Part shown: positions 19,558 through 50,061 of the stretch, piece after piece
Layout: every line of letters begins with the position of its first letter
Position numbering within the stretch: the first letter of the stretch is position 1
NCBI GenBank assembly: GCA_963743255.1
Contig: CAVUPD010000009.1
Coordinates: 221,827-285,826, forward strand
Reading direction: 5' to 3'
From: an uncultured Chloroflexia bacterium
GTDB taxonomy: Bacteria; Chloroflexota; Anaerolineae; Anaerolineales; E44-bin32
Length of the DNA stretch: 64,000 nt
Notes under the pieces: generated by a model
What the model was told of the DNA's origin: nothing
What the model saw: the letters and a program-made list of their open reading frames with translations, nothing else
Database searches by the model: none
Position numbers and translations under genes: made by a program

Positions 19558-20616
19558 ATGCTTGAACCGCTTCCCCAGCCGGACTCACAGGCCGGCGCCG
19601 CTGTACGGGTAATCGATGCCCCGGCCATCCCCGGATTGCGCTTCCGCCGTCTCACCGGATCGAGTGACTACACCGCCCTCGCGCGCCTGCGCGCCGCCTG
19701 CGAGCTTGAAGACGGCGGCGACGAACTGGTGACCGAAGCCGACATCGCCAACCTCCTTGAGAATCCGGTCGAGACCGATCCCTACCGTGATCTGATCCTC
19801 GGCGAGGTCGGCCAGGCGATGGTGGCGCTGCATTGGTCGAGCCTCCGCATCGTGGAAGGCATGTGCGTGTCTACTCTGCGGGGCTACGTCCATCCGGCAT
19901 GGCGGCGCCGCGGGATCGGTGCCCCGCTCCTGGCGCACGGCGAAAGCCATGCGCGCATGGTTGCATCAGCTTCCGGCGCCGGCACGCCTGGCGTCTGGCA
20001 GACCATGGCCAACTCGCTCGAGCCGGGGGCGCACGCGCTATACCGGGCGTCCGGGTACACCGCCTTTCGCTACGCGTTCACCATGGTCCGAGACTTGGCG
20101 GAACCGATCCCGGCGATGGAACTCCCGGCAGGGCTCGAGATCCGCCCGGCCCGCCCGGAGGACTACCGCGCGATCTGGGAGGCAGAACGCGAGGCCTTTC
20201 AGGATCATTGGGGCTACACGCCCTGGCCGGAGGAGAACTTCCGACGATTCCTGGGTTTCCCGCACTACGATCCTGCCCTGTGGCGCGTCGCATGGGACGG
20301 CGACCAGGTCGCCGGAATGGTGCTCAGCTACATCAACGCCGATGAAAACGCCGTGTTCGGCCGCCTGCGCGGCTACACCGAAGACATCGCCGTCCGTCGT
20401 CCATGGCGGCGCCGGGGCTTGGCCTCGGCCCTGCTGGCCGCCTCGTTGCGCGCCCTGCAGCAGCGCGGTCTGCATCAGGCGTCTCTGGGCGTCGACGCCA
20501 AAAACCCCAACGAGGCGCTGCGCCTGTACGAACAGCTCGGGTTCCGCACTACGCTCCTATGGACAACGTTCCGCCGCGCGTGGATTGGACCGGACCCCGA
20601 GGGGAGCACCCGATGA
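19558..20616 (+). CDS. Tandem-domain GNAT acetyltransferase (MshD-like architecture)
   Basis: Two acetyl-CoA motifs VHPAWRRRGIG and VRRPWRRRGLA; AFQDHWG; LGVD..N..A..LY..LGF. Confidence 0.85.
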   Translation: MLEPLPQPDSQAGAAVRVIDAPAIPGLRFRRLTGSSDYTALARLRAACELEDGGDELVTEADIANLLENPVETDPYRDLILGEVGQAMVALHWSSLRIVEGMCVSTLRGYVHPAWRRRGIGAPLLAHGESHARMVASASGAGTPGVWQTMANSLEPGAHALYRASGYTAFRYAFTMVRDLAEPIPAMELPAGLEIRPARPEDYRAIWEAEREAFQDHWGYTPWPEENFRRFLGFPHYDPALWRVAWDGDQVAGMVLSYINADENAVFGRLRGYTEDIAVRRPWRRRGLASALLAASLRALQQRGLHQASLGVDAKNPNEALRLYEQLGFRTTLLWTTFRRAWIGPDPEGSTR

Positions 20617-21251
20617 CCGACCAGGCTCAGCCGGCCGCCGTTCGCGCCGTCCTGTGGGATTTGGGCGGCGTGATCCTGCGTACGATGGATTGGGGCCCGC
20701 GTTCCCGGTGGGAAGAACGACTCGGGCTGGCGCACATGCAGCTGACGCGCCTGGTCTTCGAAAGCGATGCCAGCCGACGAGCGACTCTGGGACAGGCCAC
20801 GGACGACGACGTATGGGATTCGGTTGCGGCGGCGCTGCAGCTCGATCCGACGACCCGCGACCAGCTGCGCCGCGAGTACTTCGCCCACGATAAGATCGAC
20901 GCCGCCTTGATGGAATTCATACGCGGCCTTCGCCGCCACGTCCGGGTCGGCATGATCACCAACGCCTGGCCGGGCGTGCGCCGCTACCTGGAAACCGAGT
21001 TCCAGATCGCCGATGCGTTCGACCCTCTGATCGTCTCAGCCGAGGTTGGCATCGCCAAACCGGATCCGCGCATCTACCAGCTGGCGCTGGAGAGGATCGG
21101 CGTCGACGCGTCGGCGGCGGTCTTTGTGGATGACTCCGAGGCCAACGTCATCGGGGCACGCTGGGCGGGAATGCAGGCGGTGCAGTTCTCTTCGACCCCG
21201 CAGGTGATCGCCGCGGTGCGCGGGCTGCTGCGCGGACCCTCGGCAGACTGA
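20613..21251 (+). CDS. HAD-superfamily phosphatase
   Basis: WDLGGV, ITNA, KPDPRIY, FVDD; ATGA overlap. Confidence 0.88.
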   Translation: MTDQAQPAAVRAVLWDLGGVILRTMDWGPRSRWEERLGLAHMQLTRLVFESDASRRATLGQATDDDVWDSVAAALQLDPTTRDQLRREYFAHDKIDAALMEFIRGLRRHVRVGMITNAWPGVRRYLETEFQIADAFDPLIVSAEVGIAKPDPRIYQLALERIGVDASAAVFVDDSEANVIGARWAGMQAVQFSSTPQVIAAVRGLLRGPSAD

Positions 21252-41784: not shown

Positions 41785-43245
41785 ATGACGATCCACTTTG
41801 GAACCGATGGCTGGCGCGGCGTCATCTCGGACACCTTCACCTTCACCAACCTGCGCCAGGTTTCGCAGGCCATCGCCGATGCCGTCGCGTCGGGCGAATG
41901 GCTCAACGGCACCTCCAACGGATTGCACCCGGACGCGACGAAGATGGTCGTCGGCTTTGACACTCGCTTCCTCTCCGATCGGTTCGCGCTGGAGGCGGCG
42001 CGCGTCCTGGCCGCCAACGGGTTCACGGTCCATCTGACCACGGCCGACGTCCCCACTCCGGCCGTCTCCCTCGCCGTCCGCCAGCTGGGCGCCATCGGCG
42101 GGCTCATGATCACCGCCTCGCATAACGCCCCGCGCTACAACGGCGTAAAACTGAAGGCGGCCTACGGCGGTTCGGCTTCGCCCGAGCAGTGTCGCCGCGT
42201 CGAGGTGTATCTGAACGACAACGAAAGCCGGGCGCGCGGCCCGAACTTGATGGACCCGGACGAGGCCCGCCGCCTAGGCCGGCTGCAGCGTTTCAACCCG
42301 ACGCCGGCGTACTTCGACCACCTGCGCAAGCTGATCGACTTCGACATCATCGCCGACAACCCGCAGCACCTGGTGGTCGACTCGATGTACGGGTCGGGCC
42401 GCGGCCAGATCAAGGGCATCTTGCAGGGGACGGGCTGCGAGGTGTTTGAAGTGCGCGGTGAGATGAACCCGGGCTTCGGCGGCATCCACCCGGAGCCGAT
42501 TGCCCGCTACCTGGGGGCGCTCGCCGGCGCCATCGCTGCCGGACACGGACAGCTGGGGGTGGCGACGGACGGCGACGCCGACCGGATCGGCGCCATGGAC
42601 GGGCGGGGCCAGTACGTCGACCCGCACCGAATCCTGGCCCTGGCCGTCAAGTACCTTGTCGAACGCCGCGGCTGGCGCGGCAAGATCATCAAGACCATCT
42701 CGACGACCCAGATGCTCAACCGCCTGGGCGCCCGCTACGGGCTGGAGGTGATCGAAACTCCGGTCGGATTCAATCATATCGCCGACCATATGCTCAAGGA
42801 CGACGTCCTCATCGGGGGTGAGGAATCAGGGGGGATGTCGTTCAAGGGACACATCCCGGAGGGCGACGGCATCCTGATGGCGCTGCTGCTGGTCGAGATG
42901 GTGGCCGCCACCCACACGCCGCTGGCCGAGCTGGTCGAGGGCCTGCTGAAGGAAGTCGGCCCGTCGCATTACGCCCGCAACGACCTACGCCTGTCACACC
43001 CGGTCTCCAAGTCGAAGATGGTCGAACGCCTGGCGCACGAGGCCCCGGCGTCCGTGGGCGGCGTCAAGCTGAAGTCGGTCAACAGCCTCGACGGGGTCAA
43101 ATACCTCTTCGACGACGACTCCTGGCTCTTGATCCGCCCCTCCGGGACCGAGCCCGTGCTGCGCATCTACGCCGAGGCCCGCGAGCCGGAGATGGTTGAA
43201 GCGCTCCTGGCGCACGGCCGAACAATCGCCGACCTGCGCGCCTGA
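41785..43245 (+). CDS. Phosphoglucomutase/phosphomannomutase
   Basis: FGTDGWRG, TASHN, DGDADR, GEESG, RPSGTEP. Confidence 0.95.
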   Translation: MTIHFGTDGWRGVISDTFTFTNLRQVSQAIADAVASGEWLNGTSNGLHPDATKMVVGFDTRFLSDRFALEAARVLAANGFTVHLTTADVPTPAVSLAVRQLGAIGGLMITASHNAPRYNGVKLKAAYGGSASPEQCRRVEVYLNDNESRARGPNLMDPDEARRLGRLQRFNPTPAYFDHLRKLIDFDIIADNPQHLVVDSMYGSGRGQIKGILQGTGCEVFEVRGEMNPGFGGIHPEPIARYLGALAGAIAAGHGQLGVATDGDADRIGAMDGRGQYVDPHRILALAVKYLVERRGWRGKIIKTISTTQMLNRLGARYGLEVIETPVGFNHIADHMLKDDVLIGGEESGGMSFKGHIPEGDGILMALLLVEMVAATHTPLAELVEGLLKEVGPSHYARNDLRLSHPVSKSKMVERLAHEAPASVGGVKLKSVNSLDGVKYLFDDDSWLLIRPSGTEPVLRIYAEAREPEMVEALLAHGRTIADLRA

Positions 43246-43339
43246 CCCGAGAACCGCGCCTCCACCTCCCGGACCCTCACGGTGCCGGCGAGGCGCCGCC
43301 TGCCCGGTCTGCCGAGGGTCATGCCGCAGCCTCCGCCGC

Positions 43340-43516
43340 AGGCCGCCGAAGGTCCCGCGTTCTTGGCGGGATTCGCCCCAGATGTCCTCACCGGGGTCCC
43401 GCCGAAGCCCCCGCCGGAGGTCCCGCGTTCTTTGCGGGGCGTCGTTGGCGGGGCGTTCTGTGCGGGGCGGCATGGGCGGGCGTGATCTACCGGGACTTCA
43501 ACAGGGAGTCAGGCGG
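43340..43516 (-). repeat. Modular repeat element copy 1 (attC-like end)
   Basis: 12-bp gccgaaggtccc and 14-bp gcgttctttgcggg units; ends ccgggacttcaacagggagtcaggcgg, overlapping the DUF1003 stop. Confidence 0.75.
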
Positions 43517-44117
43517 AGGCGGCGTTCTTCTTCGACCGGCCTGATGGTATGGAAGGCCTCAGGACTCGACGCTGGAGCCTCTCGATTTCAGCGAGCACCT
43601 CTTCCGGCTTCGTCTCACTTTCAAGCTCCGCCAGCTCCGTGTCCTGATCGTTGTGGATGCCCATCTTGTCCTGGATGGTGTCGAGCATCCGAAGGACCCT
43701 GGTCAACTCGTACTCGGTCAGGAGGTCGATATGAAGGTCCAGGTCGGCGCGATGCTCCGCTTCCTGGCCCATTCGATTCTGTGTGATGAGGACGAAAGTC
43801 GAGAGGAAGATCGCCTCGAGCGAGACAATCATGGTGAGAAGCCCGTAGGGAAACGGATCGAAGGGGCGGAGTCCCAGCCACCCCGTGTTGAGCAGAAGCC
43901 ATACCCCGAACCACACGATGTGCACGTAGACGAACGACATGTGCCCGGAGATGCCGGTGATGGCGTCGGCGATCCGATCTTGAACGGTGCGCTCGCGGGC
44001 GGCCTTGAGTCGAAGGTGGATGATCGTGCGAATGTAGCGTTCAATCGTGGCACTCAGCGCGGGCGTGGGCTCGGAGGGGAGTTCCGCTTCTTCTGGGTTC
44101 ATATCGCCATCCTGCAT
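43509..44117 (-). CDS. DUF1003 membrane protein
   Basis: FDPFPYGLLTMIVSLEAIFLSTFVLITQNR, DLHIDLLTEYE. Confidence 0.9.
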   Translation of the reverse strand: MQDGDMNPEEAELPSEPTPALSATIERYIRTIIHLRLKAARERTVQDRIADAITGISGHMSFVYVHIVWFGVWLLLNTGWLGLRPFDPFPYGLLTMIVSLEAIFLSTFVLITQNRMGQEAEHRADLDLHIDLLTEYELTRVLRMLDTIQDKMGIHNDQDTELAELESETKPEEVLAEIERLQRRVLRPSIPSGRSKKNAASA

Positions 44118-44337
44118 CCTGTCCAGACCCTTCTCGGGTGGACCTACCCATCGGCCGTCGGGCGGAGGATCCGCCCGACGGCCATGAGATCCAAGATCCC
44201 ACGAAGTTGGTGGGAAGCTCTGCCTGTCTGAAGCTGGCAGATCTTCAAGGACTTCTAGGGCATACCGGCGCGCAAGACAAGCACCCCCGAATGACCGACC
44301 CGCCGTGTCAGCCGAAGGTCCTGGCGGTTTTCCAGGG

Positions 44338-44528
44338 TCGAAGACCGCCGGAGGCCGCCGAAGGTCCCGCCGGAGGTCCCGCGTACTGTGCGGGGCGTTC
44401 TTGGCGGGATTCGCCCCGGATGTCCTTACCGGGGTCCCGCCAAAGGCCCCGCGTCGTTGGCGGGGCGTTCTTTGCGGGGCGCCGTGGGCGGGAGTGAACT
44501 TCCGGGGCTTCAGCAAGGTGTAGGGCGG
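44338..44528 (-). repeat. Modular repeat element copy 2
   Basis: Same units as copy 1; ends ccggggcttcagcaaggtgtagggcgg. Confidence 0.75.
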
Positions 44529-44591
44529 CTGCTACCCCGCGGAAGGGACGCGACGACTGGCGATGGGGAGCGTCGAGCGCGGTGGCAGAAC

Positions 44592-45539
44592 TCAATCCCA
44601 GTTTCGGAAATCGAACCCTATGGAGTCCGCCTCGATTTTTTCGACCTGGAAGCGGCCGTACCGCCCGTCGCTCGTCTTGTAGCAGAAGTAGGACTCCGTG
44701 CTGAAGTCGGTGAAGCTAACGGCGCCGCTGCCGAGGGAGGTCTCCTTGCAGTTGTCGTAGCCGGGCGTCCCCGACATCACCTTAAGCAGAGCGCCGTTCG
44801 TGGGCTCAAGGTACCGTTCGGTGTCGGACACGTAGTTCACCCACACGTCGCGGTTCGGATCGCCGGCGCTGGTCCCCCCGTCGAAGTCAATCGAGCCCCC
44901 GTTGTCAATCGTGAGCTTGCCCGCTCGATGGGCGACTACGCTTGGTGTCGGGGTGGGGCCGACGAGGATCTGGACGTAGAAAAGGGTCCCGAAGGGGACA
45001 TCGCTTGCGTTTCGCAAGCGGTAGTTGCCGCGGTGAACCCCGTTCGTCGTCGGAGCCGTCAGCTTGATCGAGATGTCGATGGTGCTGTTGGAAGGCACCG
45101 TGCCCGCCAACGGAACGGCGGCGGGCCCGCCCATCGGTAACCCGTCGGTGAGGATCGCCTCAAAGGACGAGGTCCAGTCGCAATTCCCCGAATTGCGCAG
45201 CCGCCAGGTCTTGGTGAAGCTCTGACCCGGTTTCATCACCGTGTTGTCGGGTATCGTGACGTCAGAGACGAATTGGGAAGCATCGTCGCAGGCGGTAGTT
45301 GCTGTGGGCTGGGGCGACACCGTTGGGGTGCTGGTCGACGGGGGCGGCGTCGGGGTGTCGGTCGACGGCACGGTCGGCGTTGCCAGGCTGACCTGGGTCA
45401 GATGTGCAGAGACGGTCTCGGCTGCGACGGTCTGAGTGAGTTGCTCCGGAGACGGCGGGCGAGGCATGTTGCACGACGCCAGGAATACAAGTCCGGCGGT
45501 GAGCGAGACGGCGATAGCGGGTCTCATTCGTACGTTCAA
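44592..45539 (-). CDS. Lipoprotein with Thr/Pro linker and NBR1-Ig-like domain
   Basis: Lipobox LASC, FVSDVTIPD..PGQSFTKTWRLRNSG.C.W, FYVQI. Confidence 0.85.
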   Translation of the reverse strand: MNVRMRPAIAVSLTAGLVFLASCNMPRPPSPEQLTQTVAAETVSAHLTQVSLATPTVPSTDTPTPPPSTSTPTVSPQPTATTACDDASQFVSDVTIPDNTVMKPGQSFTKTWRLRNSGNCDWTSSFEAILTDGLPMGGPAAVPLAGTVPSNSTIDISIKLTAPTTNGVHRGNYRLRNASDVPFGTLFYVQILVGPTPTPSVVAHRAGKLTIDNGGSIDFDGGTSAGDPNRDVWVNYVSDTERYLEPTNGALLKVMSGTPGYDNCKETSLGSGAVSFTDFSTESYFCYKTSDGRYGRFQVEKIEADSIGFDFRNWD

Positions 45540-45918
45540 GTGGACTACTCCGGGCCGCGCGTGAGAAGGGTGGACGGATCCACGCCGGTCCCCGCGATGC
45601 TACTTCGGGTGATCGATGGCTGTCAAGCGGGTGGGGCTGGGCAGTTGAATGTCAAGCCGGGATCACCATCTCCGGCTGAAGGATTCGGCTGCCAACCTGC
45701 CTCCATGCGCCGATCCGATCGACACGCGAGAGCACCAGGATCTCCCGCAGATCGCCTCCCGGCTCGAAGCCGACGATTCTGCATTCCTACGCGATAGGGC
45801 GATTCGCGATCCCTGCCGCAACAGAATCCCCCGCCGCACATTCATTGTGTCGTCCTTCGCCATTTGCCCGACTACCGTTACGGCCCCGACCACTTCAGCC
45901 AAGTCGCAAGACGCCTGC

Positions 45919-46278
45919 CTATCCCATCGGACTCAGCAGTTGAAAGTAATTCCCATCCGGGTCAGCCAGCGTCGCGATCCATCCCTCTCCCATCGCATAC
46001 GGCGCTTTGATGACCGCGCCGCCCAGAGCCTTGATCCGCTCAAACTCCTCTTTGACTTGCCCTGTTTCGAAATTGAACATCACGCGGCCAGGCTCTTTGG
46101 CGCTACCCCCCATGGCGGAATGCTCCAGGACTGAGAGGAACGCACTTCCCATTCGCCACCCCCAAAAGCCATTGTCTTTGTCGATCATGTCCGCCGGCTT
46201 TCCAAAGACGTCCTCATAAAAAGCCGCCAACGCCGCTGGTTGTTTCGTTCCGATCATGACGGAGCTCAGATTCAACAT
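45919..46278 (-). CDS. VOC/glyoxalase family protein
   Basis: FYEDVFG, ATLADPDGNYFQL; RBS AAGGA; lower GC than flanks. Confidence 0.88.
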   Translation of the reverse strand: MLNLSSVMIGTKQPAALAAFYEDVFGKPADMIDKDNGFWGWRMGSAFLSVLEHSAMGGSAKEPGRVMFNFETGQVKEEFERIKALGGAVIKAPYAMGEGWIATLADPDGNYFQLLSPMG

Positions 46279-46455
46279 TCTGCGCCAATCCTTTCTGGTT
46301 GCCAGTTGGGGAAACCATCCCGGGAACCTAATCCTGATCCCATTATAGCCAACCGGATTTGCCGTCGGGCCAGCAATTCGATTGTCATGCCGCGTGATGA
46401 GTTTGCTGCTGTGGATACTTCTCTCGAATGGACGGTCGGACTGGCCTGAAGGACC

Positions 46456-46954
46456 GCCCAACGGCCTCGAGCTATCGTAGACCGCCGAAGGTCCCGCGTT
46501 CTTGGCGGGATTCGTCCCGGATGTCTTCACCGGGATCCTGCGCTCGTTGCAGGGCAAGGTCCCACCTCGACGGTGGGAAGCTGCCCGGCGAAAGCGGGCG
46601 GTTCGCCAAGATTTCTCGCGCGTGCCGGCGGGCGAGGCGCCACACCCAACGCCCCAGCCCGTCGGGTCCGCCGAAGGCCCCGCGTCGCTGGCGAGGCGTT
46701 CTTTGCGGGGCGTCTTGGGCGGGGGTGACTTCCCAGGACCGAAGGCTGTCCGTCCGGGTGTCTGTAGCGGGATCCTGCCGTAGGCCCCGCCGAAGGCCCC
46801 GCCGGAGGTCCCGCCGGAGGTCCCGCGTAGTGTGCGGGGCGTTCTTTGCGGGGCGTCGTTGGCGAGGCGTTCTTTGCGGGGCGTCTTGGGCGGGGGTGCC
46901 CTCCCGGGGCCGTAGGTCCTGGTGATCGTCCAGGACTTCAGCCAGTTGTTAGGC
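46456..46954 (-). repeat. Modular repeat element copy 3 (about 500 bp) bounded by attC-like core sites
   Basis: Minus strand begins GCCTAAC (46954-46948) and ends agctcgaggccGTTGGGC (46462-46456); interior is tandem 12- and 14-bp units. Confidence 0.7.
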
Positions 46955-46971
46955 GGACGGGATGCCGCCCT

Positions 46972-47820
46972 TCATCCACCGATCCGCCTCACCGGAGGTC
47001 GCAAACCGAGATACCCACCCAGGAGGGCGAACCCCAGCAGCAAAACCAAGAACTCACCACCGGCGAGAACGATCGTAACCTCCAACCCCACTTTCAGACT
47101 GGGCGGGAGCCCCTCCCGCAACTGCGCGGCCGCGAGTCCGACCCCTGCCAGGATGCCGACGCCGCACGCAAGCCGCCAGGGGTGGAGCCTCGGGTTGAGC
47201 CACGGAACTCGGGACAATAGCAGGCCGGAGTCAAAGCGCAATATGGATTCGAAAAGTGGACGGGGAAGGACTCGTTTCAGATGCCGGGACGGAATTCGGA
47301 CAAGCGCCCACAGGTCATCGATGGCGTCTGCCAGGGTCAAGTCCTCCGGGGGGCGAGGCCCAGGCACTTGGCGCGCAAGGATCACAAGCAGCATTCCACA
47401 GGCGACGCACAGTACGGACATGAAGATCAACTGCCACTGGAGGACCCGACCCCAATAGGATGGAAGTGGCGACCGTGTAGCTTCGGCCACCGCATCTGCA
47501 AGGAGAGTGACCAGGACTGCTGAAAGAACGACGGCGTTGCCTCGCAGGATCAAGCGGACCCTTGCAGCCAGAGAGAACTCGGACTGCAGCCTCAGGGAAC
47601 GGGCATAGGTCAGGACGCCAACCACCAACCCCACTTGGAAGGCGAACGATCCAACGGCATCGTAGGGGTCCGTGGAGAATGGGTTGTCTTGAACGAAGGG
47701 AGGTCCCTTGTTGACGAAGAAGAATAGGGTGAAGACTACCGCATAGGCGAGGACAAGCGCCGAGACCAAGTGAAGGGCCCGTGCCGCCCGCACATCAATC
47801 GTCGCGCCTTCCCTATCCAT
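46972..47820 (-). CDS. Hypothetical integral membrane protein
   Basis: 282 aa, about 6 TM helices, NPF..DPYDAVGSF motif, RBS AGGTAGG. Confidence 0.7.
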   Translation of the reverse strand: MDREGATIDVRAARALHLVSALVLAYAVVFTLFFFVNKGPPFVQDNPFSTDPYDAVGSFAFQVGLVVGVLTYARSLRLQSEFSLAARVRLILRGNAVVLSAVLVTLLADAVAEATRSPLPSYWGRVLQWQLIFMSVLCVACGMLLVILARQVPGPRPPEDLTLADAIDDLWALVRIPSRHLKRVLPRPLFESILRFDSGLLLSRVPWLNPRLHPWRLACGVGILAGVGLAAAQLREGLPPSLKVGLEVTIVLAGGEFLVLLLGFALLGGYLGLRPPVRRIGG

Positions 47821-48128
47821 TGCCTACCTACGCGCATCCGCCTGAGAAATGATTTTACAACTCCCCTCTCTCGCTGGTAGGTCACCCCGACAGGAGAGGG
47901 GACGATGCGAACCGCAGGCCGAGGCCGCTGAGGCGGATTGATACGCGAGACAGGCGGGTCGGCGATTGCGCGCGGCGCGTGCCGCCATGGTTCGATCCAC
48001 TTTAGGGGGAGCAGGCGTGCGCAAGGGATGTGCGGCGCAGGCGGCATTTTGACCACTCACCAATCCGCGCTGCCAAGCCTGCAGTCAGTGGTACGATTCC
48101 ACACGTCACGATCAGTGGAGGTCGGCAA

Positions 48129-48590
48129 ATGGCTATGCCAAAGGTCGGAGAGGTGGCGCCGGATTTCACTCTGACTTCCGACACGGGAGATTTAGTGAAC
48201 CTCAGCGCCCTGCGGGGTGGTCCGGTGGTCCTGTATTTCTATCCCCGGGATGACACCAGCGGGTGCACGGCTGAGTCGTGCAGCATTCGGGACGACTATG
48301 GCGCCTACCGGCAGGCCGGCGTCACCATCCTTGGCGTCAGCCCCGATTCCGTCGCCTCGCACGTCAGGTTCAAGGAGAAGTACAAGCTGCCCTTCTCGCT
48401 GCTGGCTGACGAGGACCATTCGGTCCTGGAGGCCTATGGCGCCTGGGGAATGCGGAAGGCGCGCATGGGCGTCCTGCGGACGACGTTCCTGATCGCCCCG
48501 GACGGAAAGATCGCCCACGTCTTCGAGCAAGTGAAACCGCAGGGACACAGCACGGAGATCCTGGCCGCGTTGAAGGAAGTCCGGCCGTAG
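48129..48590 (+). CDS. bcp: Peroxiredoxin Bcp/PrxQ
   Basis: APDFTL, YFYPRDDTSGCTAESC, GVSPD, RTTFLI. Confidence 0.92.
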   Translation: MAMPKVGEVAPDFTLTSDTGDLVNLSALRGGPVVLYFYPRDDTSGCTAESCSIRDDYGAYRQAGVTILGVSPDSVASHVRFKEKYKLPFSLLADEDHSVLEAYGAWGMRKARMGVLRTTFLIAPDGKIAHVFEQVKPQGHSTEILAALKEVRP

Positions 48591-48744
48591 GAAAATCAAC
48601 CGAACGTCCGGACCCCCAGTCGGCTGCGCTTGCCTCCCAAGGTTGGGCCCTCTCGGACGTCCCCACCCTACTCCTTCCGACCGCCAGGTTGTGCAGCAAC
48701 CTAGGGGTGGGACCACAGCGGAGAGCTGGCGAGGGCGAGCCCCG

Positions 48745-50061
48745 TCACTCAGCTCGCGGCCGGGAGAGGAGCTTGTATCCTCGGCCGCGCTGGGTGATCA
48801 GGTAGCGCGGGTTGGCCGGGTCCTGCTCGATCTTGCTCCGCAAGCGGCTGACGAGCTTCTCCACGCGGGCGTCGTCGATCTCGTCCAGGTAGCCTTCGCC
48901 CCACACGGCCGTCACGATCTGGTACTTGTCGGTTAGTTTGTCGCGCCGCCCGTGCAGGAGCTGCAGCAGCTTGTACTCGAGGTCGGTCAGCACGGGGATG
49001 CGGACCTCGTCCACCCACACGTCGCCGGAATCGGGGTCCAGGCGAACCCCGGCGGCGGGCGTCTCCGGCCCGCGCAGGCGGCGCGTGACGAACGCCTCGA
49101 AGATTGGCGAGAAGGGCCGGCCGGCACGCAGCAGACCGAGTGACTCAAGGTGCTCCAACTGCTGGGGAGGCAGGCTGCTCGCCGGCTCCACTGCCAGGCT
49201 GATGATCGCCTCCTGCTCCTCGGGCGTCAACTGGTTCCAAATCTTGAGACATTCGGCGCGCGGCGTCGGTTCCAGGCCGACAACCTGGAGCGCGTCCCCG
49301 AGCTGCTCGGTCTCCATCCCGGCGACGACCTGCGCCGCCGCCACCAGGAGCCCCAGGTGCCCGCCGGCCAGCTCCAGGCAGGCCGCCACGCGCTTGGTAC
49401 CCAGGCCGGGGATGTTCAGCGAGCCGAGGATCTGTCGCGCTTCGTCATCGTCCAGCGGCGGCATCGGGTAGGTCGAGCGGGCGAACATCTCGGCGAATTC
49501 GTCTTCCACCGTGCTGCCGCGCAGGTCGGGGAGCACGCGAAGCGTGGCGGTCACGTACCCGAGCCGATCCTTGAAGCGGTCGCGCAGAGCCCGCAGGTTC
49601 AGCAGGGCGCGGTCATCCAACGTCGTGTACAGCTCGTCGAATTCATCGATCAGCAGACACAAGTCGCGCCCGAGGTGCTCGCACAGATCGGTGAGCGCCA
49701 GGTTGAACGACAGCGAAGCATTGAAGGCCGTGGTGGCGTCGGTGACTTCCTGGTGGTGGGCGCGGAGCGTGGCATTGATGTCGAGCGCCACTTGATCGGC
49801 CAGCGCCTCGAGCAGCGAGCGCAGGACGACCTCGTAGAAGCCCTGGGCCGAAATGGCCACCGCCCGGTTGCAGTCGACGTAGATCATGACCGCCCGCCGG
49901 CCGCACAGCTTGGCGTAGATGCGCTCGGCGGTTTGCCCGGAGAGGGCGCGCATCAGCGTCGACTTACCGGTGTTGCTCAGGCCGACCAGCGCCGCACATC
50001 GTCCGGCGGATAGATCGGTCAGCACCCGGCGGGCAAGGCTCTCGTAGGGCAGGACGGCCAT
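48745..50061 (-). CDS. STAND-like P-loop NTPase with C-terminal OmpR-type winged helix
   Basis: GLSNTGKST, LLIDEFD, AGGH; LTDLEYKLL..VWG..LVSRLRSKIE.DP.NPRYLITQRGRGY. Confidence 0.82.
   Translation of the reverse strand: MAVLPYESLARRVLTDLSAGRCAALVGLSNTGKSTLMRALSGQTAERIYAKLCGRRAVMIYVDCNRAVAISAQGFYEVVLRSLLEALADQVALDINATLRAHHQEVTDATTAFNASLSFNLALTDLCEHLGRDLCLLIDEFDELYTTLDDRALLNLRALRDRFKDRLGYVTATLRVLPDLRGSTVEDEFAEMFARSTYPMPPLDDDEARQILGSLNIPGLGTKRVAACLELAGGHLGLLVAAAQVVAGMETEQLGDALQVVGLEPTPRAECLKIWNQLTPEEQEAIISLAVEPASSLPPQQLEHLESLGLLRAGRPFSPIFEAFVTRRLRGPETPAAGVRLDPDSGDVWVDEVRIPVLTDLEYKLLQLLHGRRDKLTDKYQIVTAVWGEGYLDEIDDARVEKLVSRLRSKIEQDPANPRYLITQRGRGYKLLSRPRAE

Follow-up and report, generated by a model that had tools for sequence, protein, structure and literature searches.

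What separates the four co-oriented genes that lie between PGM and bcp in the 64,000-nucleotide stretch of probable Anaerolineae (Chloroflexota) DNA analysed here? This stretch, called the window below, spans positions 221827–285826 of contig C9 in genome G000 (3.41 Mb in 23 contigs, 66% G+C, about 80% completeness); coordinates with a contig prefix refer to that genome, and bare coordinates to the window. The initial annotation, read from the letters alone, had described repeat-built elements with ends resembling integron attC sites behind three of these genes, and had proposed either a decayed cluster of attC sites lacking an integrase (CALIN), with attC sites expanded to 180–500 bp, or a new repeat family that targets or derives from attC sites. 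Our analysis supports the CALIN proposal through an attC model made from the genome's own sites, the genome's integrases, the distribution of the elements and the turnover of the locus. The region is very probably an integrase-less integron cassette array, in which two of the elements, E2 and E3, are attC sites of the genome's own family that have been enlarged by hairpin units. Site identity, insert layout, strain-to-strain variability, cassette turnover at the locus and the crossover signature in the genome were all observed directly. Along the minus strand the order is membrane protein gene, E3, VOC gene, decayed site, lipoprotein gene, E2, DUF1003 gene and truncated E1.

Integron integrases are encoded elsewhere in this genome. 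The NCBIfam integron-integrase model TIGR02249 (cut-off 265) scored 406 bits in an open frame at C13:40086–41021 (+), and a second integrase gene at C9:20280–21222 scored 338 + 99 bits split over two frames, its N-terminal part lying at 20280–20549 and its catalytic part at 20548–21222; inverted fragments of a third integrase, about 30% identical, are found beside it (C9:19164–19898, minus strand). Both integrase genes are divergent from long arrays on the opposite strand (C13:22.9–39.1 kb and C9:0.1–17.4 kb), which is the canonical layout. Of the 61 family genomes searched, 27 gave TIGR02249 scores above the cut-off, and the closest relative of the integrase (83% identity) is found in an uncultured Anaerolineae genome. 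The window itself had been described as free of an integrase, and tblastn likewise detected no integrase remnant in its 64 kb (best E 0.7); the contig's closest integrase lies at a distance of about 245 kb. Within an integrase-less array on C1, a fragment of 33 C-terminal integron-integrase residues, 52% identical to the C13 protein (C1:90542–90640), may be left over from the platform by which that array was built.

The arrays adjoining the integrases define the attC family of this genome. Genome-wide, end profiles found 66 proximal and 56 distal ends, which paired into 48 measured sites. In the integrase-linked arrays 24 of 27 sites are 129–135 nt long, the other three being 100, 156 and 198 nt; among the 21 sites of integrase-less arrays, three are 129–131 nt, four are 157 nt and fourteen are 211–499 nt. 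The 131-nt site has the plan GCCYAAC-AA-CTCGCTGAAGCTGACCCGGCGG...variable tip...CCGCCGGGCAGCTTAGCTCGAG-GCC-GTTRGGC, with AAC and GTT invariant in 24 aligned integrase-linked sites. The fold predicted for its bottom strand pairs the R box, leaves a short spacer unpaired and continues as a long stem, in which one T is bulged, up to the variable tip. In the consensus fold of the family there are 28 pairs, with two single-base bulges that lie on the arm expected to bear extrahelical bases. According to PMC5371416, attC sites of sedentary chromosomal integrons measure 120–129 bp (Vibrio cholerae repeats) and the overall range is 57–141 bp; variable tips are given as 20–100 nt in PMC4889954. A covariance model built solely from the 24 integrase-linked sites, all of them outside the window, matched full length in 44 of 44 cases in integrase-linked arrays of five relatives from other genera, where 20 measured sites were 88–131 nt long.

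The attC sites of the window were called with this model of the genome's own family. E3 (46456–46954, minus strand, 499 nt) and E2 (44173–44526, minus strand, 354 nt) were each delimited by end pairing, alignment to a 131-nt reference site and the covariance model. Aligned to the reference, E3 reads as positions 1–18 (46954–46937), insert A, positions 19–112, insert B and positions 113–131; on the minus strand this corresponds to an R″ box GCCTAAC (46948–46954), an insert A of 265 nt (46936–46672), an inner core (46671–46579), an insert B of 104 nt (46578–46475) and the L′/R′ end ...AGCTCGAGGCC GTTGGGC (46474–46456, with GTTGGGC at 46456–46462). E2 follows the same plan, with R″ GCCCTAC (44520–44526), an insert A of 196 nt (44508–44313), an inner core (44312–44220), an insert B of 24 nt (44219–44196) and R′ GTCGGGC (44173–44179). 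What both sites have kept is thus the outer 18–19 nt on each side and an inner core of about 92 nt, and what they have gained is GC-rich DNA without coding capacity. The covariance model scored the inner core of E3 (46580–46671, model positions 19–111) at 44.9 bits (E 2e-8) and that of E2 (44220–44311, model positions 20–110) at 28.9 bits (E 1.4e-4), and within the window the nhmmer end profiles found both ends of E3 (E 9e-6 and 2e-10) and of E2 (proximal 0.0017, distal only 0.75). An attC model score had been named by the initial annotation as a check on its proposal, and here such a score comes from the model of the genome's own family, for the inner cores of both sites.

A distance of 2.3 kb separates E2 from E3, and two decayed sites are found next to them. 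E1 (43246–43514, minus strand), recognised by sequence, appears as the truncated last attC of the array: a degenerate R″ box is followed by tandem hairpin modules that abut the PGM stop, alignment to the 131-nt reference covers the first 18 positions only (12 of 18 identical), and both inner core and R′ end are missing. The fourth site is a remnant in the spacer at 45528–45918 (minus strand), where an R″-like end lies near 45884–45908. This remnant was matched neither by the covariance model nor by the end profiles, E1 was not matched by the covariance model, and a looser search for distal ends of the decayed sites gave nothing convincing. The initial annotation had read these details correctly from the letters: the three gene-proximal 27-mers align; copy 3 (E3) begins with GCCTAAC 17 bp after a stop codon and ends with GTTGGGC; the stop codon TGA of the DUF1003 gene lies inside the GCCTGAC box of E1 (43508–43514); the distal cores of copies 1 and 2 are degenerate, that of E1 being absent and that of E2 reading GTCGGGC; and the weak fourth end that it placed at about 45893, by the VOC stop, is the decayed remnant. 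Canonical cores at both ends (RYYYAAC ... GTTRRRY) are found in E3 only among the window sites.

The layout of E2 and E3 recurs elsewhere in the genome. In its integrase-less loci the covariance model gave 26 core-only matches, none of which extends beyond positions 18 or 111, and the inserts occupy two mirror-image points of the stem, after model position 18 and after about position 112. They are composed of tandem repeats with 12- and 14-nt periods and of 24–28-nt hairpins with GC stems of 5–6 bp and loops of 7–9 nt. Site lengths form a graded series, 131 to 157 to 211 to 286–499 nt, in which the 157-nt site equals the 131-nt site plus one 26-nt hairpin unit ending in GATCTTCGA, the 211-nt site carries 81 extra nt after position 18, and the sites of 286–499 nt have inserts in both arms. 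The 26-nt unit stands after position 18/19 in four sites, one of which belongs to the second cassette from the C9 integrase, and after position 112 in one. The sites of 156/157 nt (C9:16324, C1:87135, C11:34942, C19:6433 and C9:359604), each with a single 25–26-nt unit in one arm or the other, look like the first step of enlargement. In the first hairpin of insert B the stem reads CCCAC/GTGGG four times, CCCAT/ATGGG twice and CCCGC/GCGGG once, with three imperfect cases, in what is a small sample; the changed bases of the L box are also part of this first inserted hairpin, and covariation of the L box between the 131-nt and the enlarged types is not claimed. The arrays also have a polarity. 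Five integrase-less arrays (those on C1 and C19 and those at C9:349–361 kb, C13:228–236 kb and C14:126–129 kb) start, in the coding direction, with one or two full-length sites and continue with split sites, an order that fits sites growing as their cassettes age, or else recent insertions on top of an older subfamily of long sites.

A scattering of element copies over the genome, which the initial annotation held would speak against its proposal, was not found. BLASTN of the elements against the whole genome returned 68 merged intervals (10 on C1, 19 on C9, 4 on C11, 12 on C13, 11 on C14, 11 on C19 and 1 on C23), and all of these except the isolated one on C23 fall into about ten clusters with a single orientation in each and a spacing of about 1 kb. 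The genome carries the crossover signature of integrons. The integrase crosses over between the G and the TT of R′, and the last six bases of a site pass to the next cassette; therefore the R″ box of a cassette should complement the R′ box upstream and not its own. Of 37 neighbour pairs 23 were informative, and R″ was better matched by the upstream R′ in 18 and by its own R′ in 1, with 4 ties. Counted as for, against and tie, the integrase-linked arrays gave 13/0/1 and the integrase-less arrays with enlarged sites 5/1/3; in the former, for instance, GTTAGAT is succeeded by ATCTAAC, and GTTAGCT by AGCTAAC. The DUF1003 cassette provides the only adjacent pair in the window with both parts, and its 5′ TCGGGC is complementary to its own R″ GCCTGA at five of six positions, including an unusual G:C pair; in the congeneric genome G003 the upstream core of this cassette reads GTT, which gives four of six, and the signal in the window rests on one substitution.

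Comparison with relatives shows that, within the genus, the array keeps its place beside bcp and its content turns over. bcp is the fixed boundary in three congeners (G000, G001 and G003). G003, the PGM of which is 99.6% identical, has the DUF1003, VOC and membrane protein genes and bcp, and in place of the lipoprotein block it carries a complete 209-nt attC and a cassette for a PPOX-class F420 oxidoreductase (TIGR03667, 169.5 bits), the 209-nt attC coming after the same decayed remnant as in the window spacer. The G003 ortholog of the membrane protein (L039:6830–7676) is about 90% identical and lies in two overlapping pieces in different frames, so this gene looks frameshifted there. In G001, 21.7 kb with at least nine attC ends lie between PGM and bcp; the lipoprotein is present (88% identity) and the other three cassettes are absent. 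Orthologous sites also differ in length between G000 and G003 (E1 272 and 150 nt, E3 499 and 381 nt, E2 about 354–359 and 378 nt) within flanks that are 95–97% identical. In contigs from four public DNA runs of three studies, 90–99% alike to the window, a 54-nt deletion in E3 was seen in all four runs and a 171-nt replacement relative to the window in three of four; no clean cassette-excision junction was found in these contigs, which are of relatives and broken at repeats. A module-rich probe of 266 nt matched in 4 of the 61 family genomes (G000, G001, G003 and, with one match, G038); it had no match in the congeners G002 (740 contigs) and G004 (320 contigs), where the repeats may be unassembled.

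The block is absent from the ten loci examined in other genera of the family. PGM lies 2–453 nt from a convergent gene for a STAND-type regulator in five of them, 5–6 kb of large ordinary genes intervene in two, and in three the 10 kb retrieved contained no regulator homolog; neither bcp nor any of the four cassettes had a homolog in the ten. The gap between PGM and the regulator gene was considered as a cassette hot spot in other genera and rejected, since the 5–6 kb in G014 and G016 consist of large ordinary ORFs with no attC ends. The comparison of the PGM–bcp interval that the initial annotation had suggested showed differing gene content among the three congeners. The annotation had proposed looking there for precise gain or loss of genes at G/TT; the mapped breakpoints of the lipoprotein/PPOX swap lie elsewhere: homology between G000 and G003 breaks at 45782, the exact start of the attC of G003, and at 44492, about 35 nt inside E2. 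Because these breakpoints are not at G|TT, the swap suggests exchange through shared repeats and not a clean integrase event.

Predicted folding bears on the mobility of the cassettes. With DNA energy parameters the pairing probability of the R box was at least 0.5 in 22 of 27 sites of 129–135 nt versus 4 of 14 sites of at least 211 nt; it was 0.01 for E3 and 0.40 for E2, two sites that retain the sequence of their outer boxes. PMC5371416 points out that branched folds which fail to restore a recombinogenic site can be favoured by a large tip. Because the cores of E2 are degenerate, E1 is truncated and the fourth site has decayed, the window array looks largely immobilised, with E3 as the sole candidate for activity. 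The GC-rich hairpin units of 12, 14 and 24–28 nt have been added at the two mirror-image stem points, in a part of the site in which attC variation is known to be tolerated. We propose that the inserts would lengthen and shorten as direct repeats in this hairpin-prone DNA undergo slippage or unequal recombination. Growth may be largely a matter of cassettes whose folding is no longer required by an integrase; enlargement would then lower the chance of forming the recombination hairpin, allowing cassettes to become fixed chromosomal genes, and the shared modules could offer homology for ordinary recombination between arrays instead. A more far-reaching version, which we put forward tentatively and consider less probable than its opposite, makes the attC tip a growth zone that units of about 26 nt would enter at the two mirror-image points and in which they would multiply, taking the site from 131 to about 500 nt; enlarged sites would then mark, and perhaps cause, the conversion of cassettes into fixed, self-expressed genes and give homology for integrase-independent shuffling between arrays.

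Several observations weigh against reading the region as a cassette array with enlarged attC sites. At 354 and 499 nt, E2 and E3 are outside the range of 57–141 bp given for attC sites in PMC5371416. The conserved AAC/GTT triplet of E2 is broken at both ends (TAC and GTC), and at most one window site, E3, is a candidate for recombination, because it alone has canonical cores, the triplet of E2 is broken and E1 is without a distal end. The comparison of the E3 core with E2 is a tie, and these two sites do not belong to adjacent cassettes; the lipoprotein/PPOX swap, as described above, did not break at G|TT. No compensatory changes were found in any of the 28 stem pairs of the 131-nt family, because the pairs are nearly invariant, and the fold therefore rests on energy and analogy. 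The polarity of the arrays is not universal: in a sixth, C14:187–199.7 kb, which runs off its contig, full-length and split sites stand without order. The long sites may moreover be an older attC subfamily that was born long and did not grow after contact with an integrase was lost. Finally, the exact site lengths rest on metagenome-assembled genomes, in which tandem repeats can be mis-assembled.

Other explanations of the modules were weighed against the enlarged-attC reading. That these are ordinary chromosomal genes split by intergenic palindromic repeats of the REP/BIME kind, with no link to integrons, might be supposed from GC-rich palindromic units lying between co-oriented genes, but we find it scarcely credible and regard it as already refuted: the repeats keep to arrays, and integron integrases border two of these; the elements end in the R″/R′ cores of the integrase-linked arrays; the crossover signature was detected; and the block varies within the genus and is missing from the loci examined in other genera. 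It is a different matter whether the modules inside the attC sites are themselves mobile. The second proposal of the initial annotation, a new repeat family, stands insofar as the hairpin modules were found only inside attC sites; they may spread as elements or multiply through local duplication. A small non-autonomous element, MITE- or REP-like, that invades attC hairpins would account for this confinement and for the discrete 26-nt unit ending in GATCTTCGA at one of two fixed points, the same points at which the larger inserts are found. We nevertheless judge such an element improbable. No terminal inverted repeats or target duplications were seen, insert length is continuous from 24 to 265 nt with internal tandem periods of 12 and 14 nt and no coding capacity, the only match to a Y1 transposase (C1:130001) is away from every array, and orthologous sites differ by whole blocks, as slippage or unequal exchange predicts.

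Enlargement could also be functional: together with a promoter-like box in the tip, the runs of hairpins would turn each cassette of an integrase-less array into a transcription unit of its own, which starts independently, has its RNA stabilised by hairpins at the 3′ end and is shielded from antisense read-through. We consider this unlikely, if less so than invasion by a mobile element. Tips of the 131-nt sites (loci L010 and L014) contain a −10-like box (TAGAGT, CACAAT, GACAAT, TACAGT) in which A, A and T (nAnAnT; positions 75, 77 and 79 of the first sequence in alignment A1) are invariant in 24 of 24 sites of an otherwise variable tip, and by our reading of the alignment TTG stands at the −35 placing before it in most of them, the pair pointing towards the next cassette. 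In the first hairpin of insert B, changes on both sides leave the stem intact, and one mapped transcription start within an attC site is on record for Vibrio (PMC11014356). Two modules (44446–44466 and 46820–46840) are also terminator-like on the plus strand, antisense to the cassettes, with a GC stem followed by GTTCTTTG, and could stop read-through from PGM. Yet a consensus promoter scan flagged one attC site in an 18-kb integrase-linked array and none among the window attC sites, the −10-like box of E2 and E3 carries a 1-nt insertion, the attC tips of other genera do not conserve a −35/−10 pair at proper spacing, and the count of terminator-like modules, 7, was not above that of shuffled sequences (mean 4.1, sd 2.0).

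The genes of the window were identified by a Pfam scan of its proteins, and the scan and the ORFs agree with the earlier description of four unrelated minus-strand genes between PGM (41785–43245, plus strand; Pfam) and bcp. From the bcp side these encode a membrane protein of no known family (46972–47820; identified as an ORF, with a Pfam match only below threshold and no NCBIfam match), a glyoxalase/VOC-fold protein (45919–46278; PF18029 and PF00903; 97% identity in G003), a lipoprotein with an NBR1-type Ig domain (N_BRCA1_IG; 44592–45527; PF16158, 76.6 bits) and a DUF1003 membrane protein (43509–44102; PF06210, 99.4 bits; 95% identity in G003). bcp encodes an AhpC/TSA peroxiredoxin (48129–48590, plus strand; PF00578, 133.5 bits), and the cassette block and bcp together sit between PGM and the gene for a STAND-type regulator. 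The distance from stop codon to R″ is 17 nt for the membrane protein gene and 65 nt for the lipoprotein gene, and the stop of the DUF1003 gene overlaps the box. The genes thus have the form of gene cassettes, one promoterless ORF with an attC close behind in a co-oriented array, except for a promoter-like site of the lipoprotein gene: at 45626–45597 (minus strand), about 70 nt upstream, the promoter scan found TTGACA, an 18-nt spacer and TAGCAT (10 of 12 matches), and this cassette, judged by its sequence, probably brings its own near-consensus promoter of the sigma-70 type. The spacer between bcp and the regulator gene (48591–48744) contains GCCCAAC on the minus strand; its counterpart in G003 (L039:5973–6090) gave a weak full-length match to the attC model (13.7 bits, E 0.68), with none in the window, and this may be what is left of an initial attC of the array, or a chance match. 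The idea of bcp as an inverted cassette found no support, that match in G003 being the sole hint. An Rfam scan of 43000–48800 with E up to 1 returned just two chance matches, to a snoRNA and an lncRNA.

Should recombination still take place at the 499-nt site, the tip length that the integrase tolerates would exceed 400 nt, far beyond the lengths in the literature cited here. Effects of tip length on folding and recombination have so far been studied mostly with engineered sites, and the natural series of 131, 157, 211 and 286–499 nt on one scaffold, in a genome with an apparently intact integrase, provides material on the limits of tip length. It also offers a concrete view of a route by which cassettes may cease to be mobile and turn into ordinary genes of the chromosome. 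Integron surveys that rely on attC models tuned to 57–141 bp would miss sites two to four times longer, and the default attC size limit of IntegronFinder, about 200 bp, would probably cause those of the window to be missed. Since surveys find cassettes via attC models with such size limits, the number of cassette arrays may be underestimated in Chloroflexota and perhaps in other groups too.

How does the array compare with known systems? REP sequences are dispersed genome-wide and linked to RAYT transposases. The units described here resemble REP/BIME elements in being short GC-rich hairpins in tandem clusters downstream of genes, and differ in occurring only inside the attC sites of cassette arrays. 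Insertion sequences of the IS1111-attC group and group IIC-attC introns target attC sites, are kilobase-sized and encode their own enzyme; the likeness lies in extra DNA specifically inside attC, whereas the inserts here are short tandem units totalling 24–265 nt, with no ORF. A literature search of limited coverage found no description of attC sites enlarged by tandem hairpin repeats. Compared with sedentary chromosomal integrons as characterised in PMC5371416, the integrase-linked arrays of this genome are similar in their homogeneous family of about 131 nt with a branched tip, and the window sites differ in that hairpin units in tandem, 220–369 nt in all, have been added at the tip's base. 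Measured against CALINs as described by Cury et al. 2016 (PMC4889954), the window is alike in several ways: it has two or more attC sites, its cassettes carry one gene each, share an orientation and are unrelated in function, its 64 kb are free of an integrase, and IntI is encoded elsewhere in the genome, as in half of the published CALINs. It is unlike them in the size of its sites, 354 and 499 nt versus tips of 20–100 nt, and in the decay of two of its four sites. CALINs are already known, and the apparent novelty of this locus is the enlargement of attC two- to fourfold by repeats.

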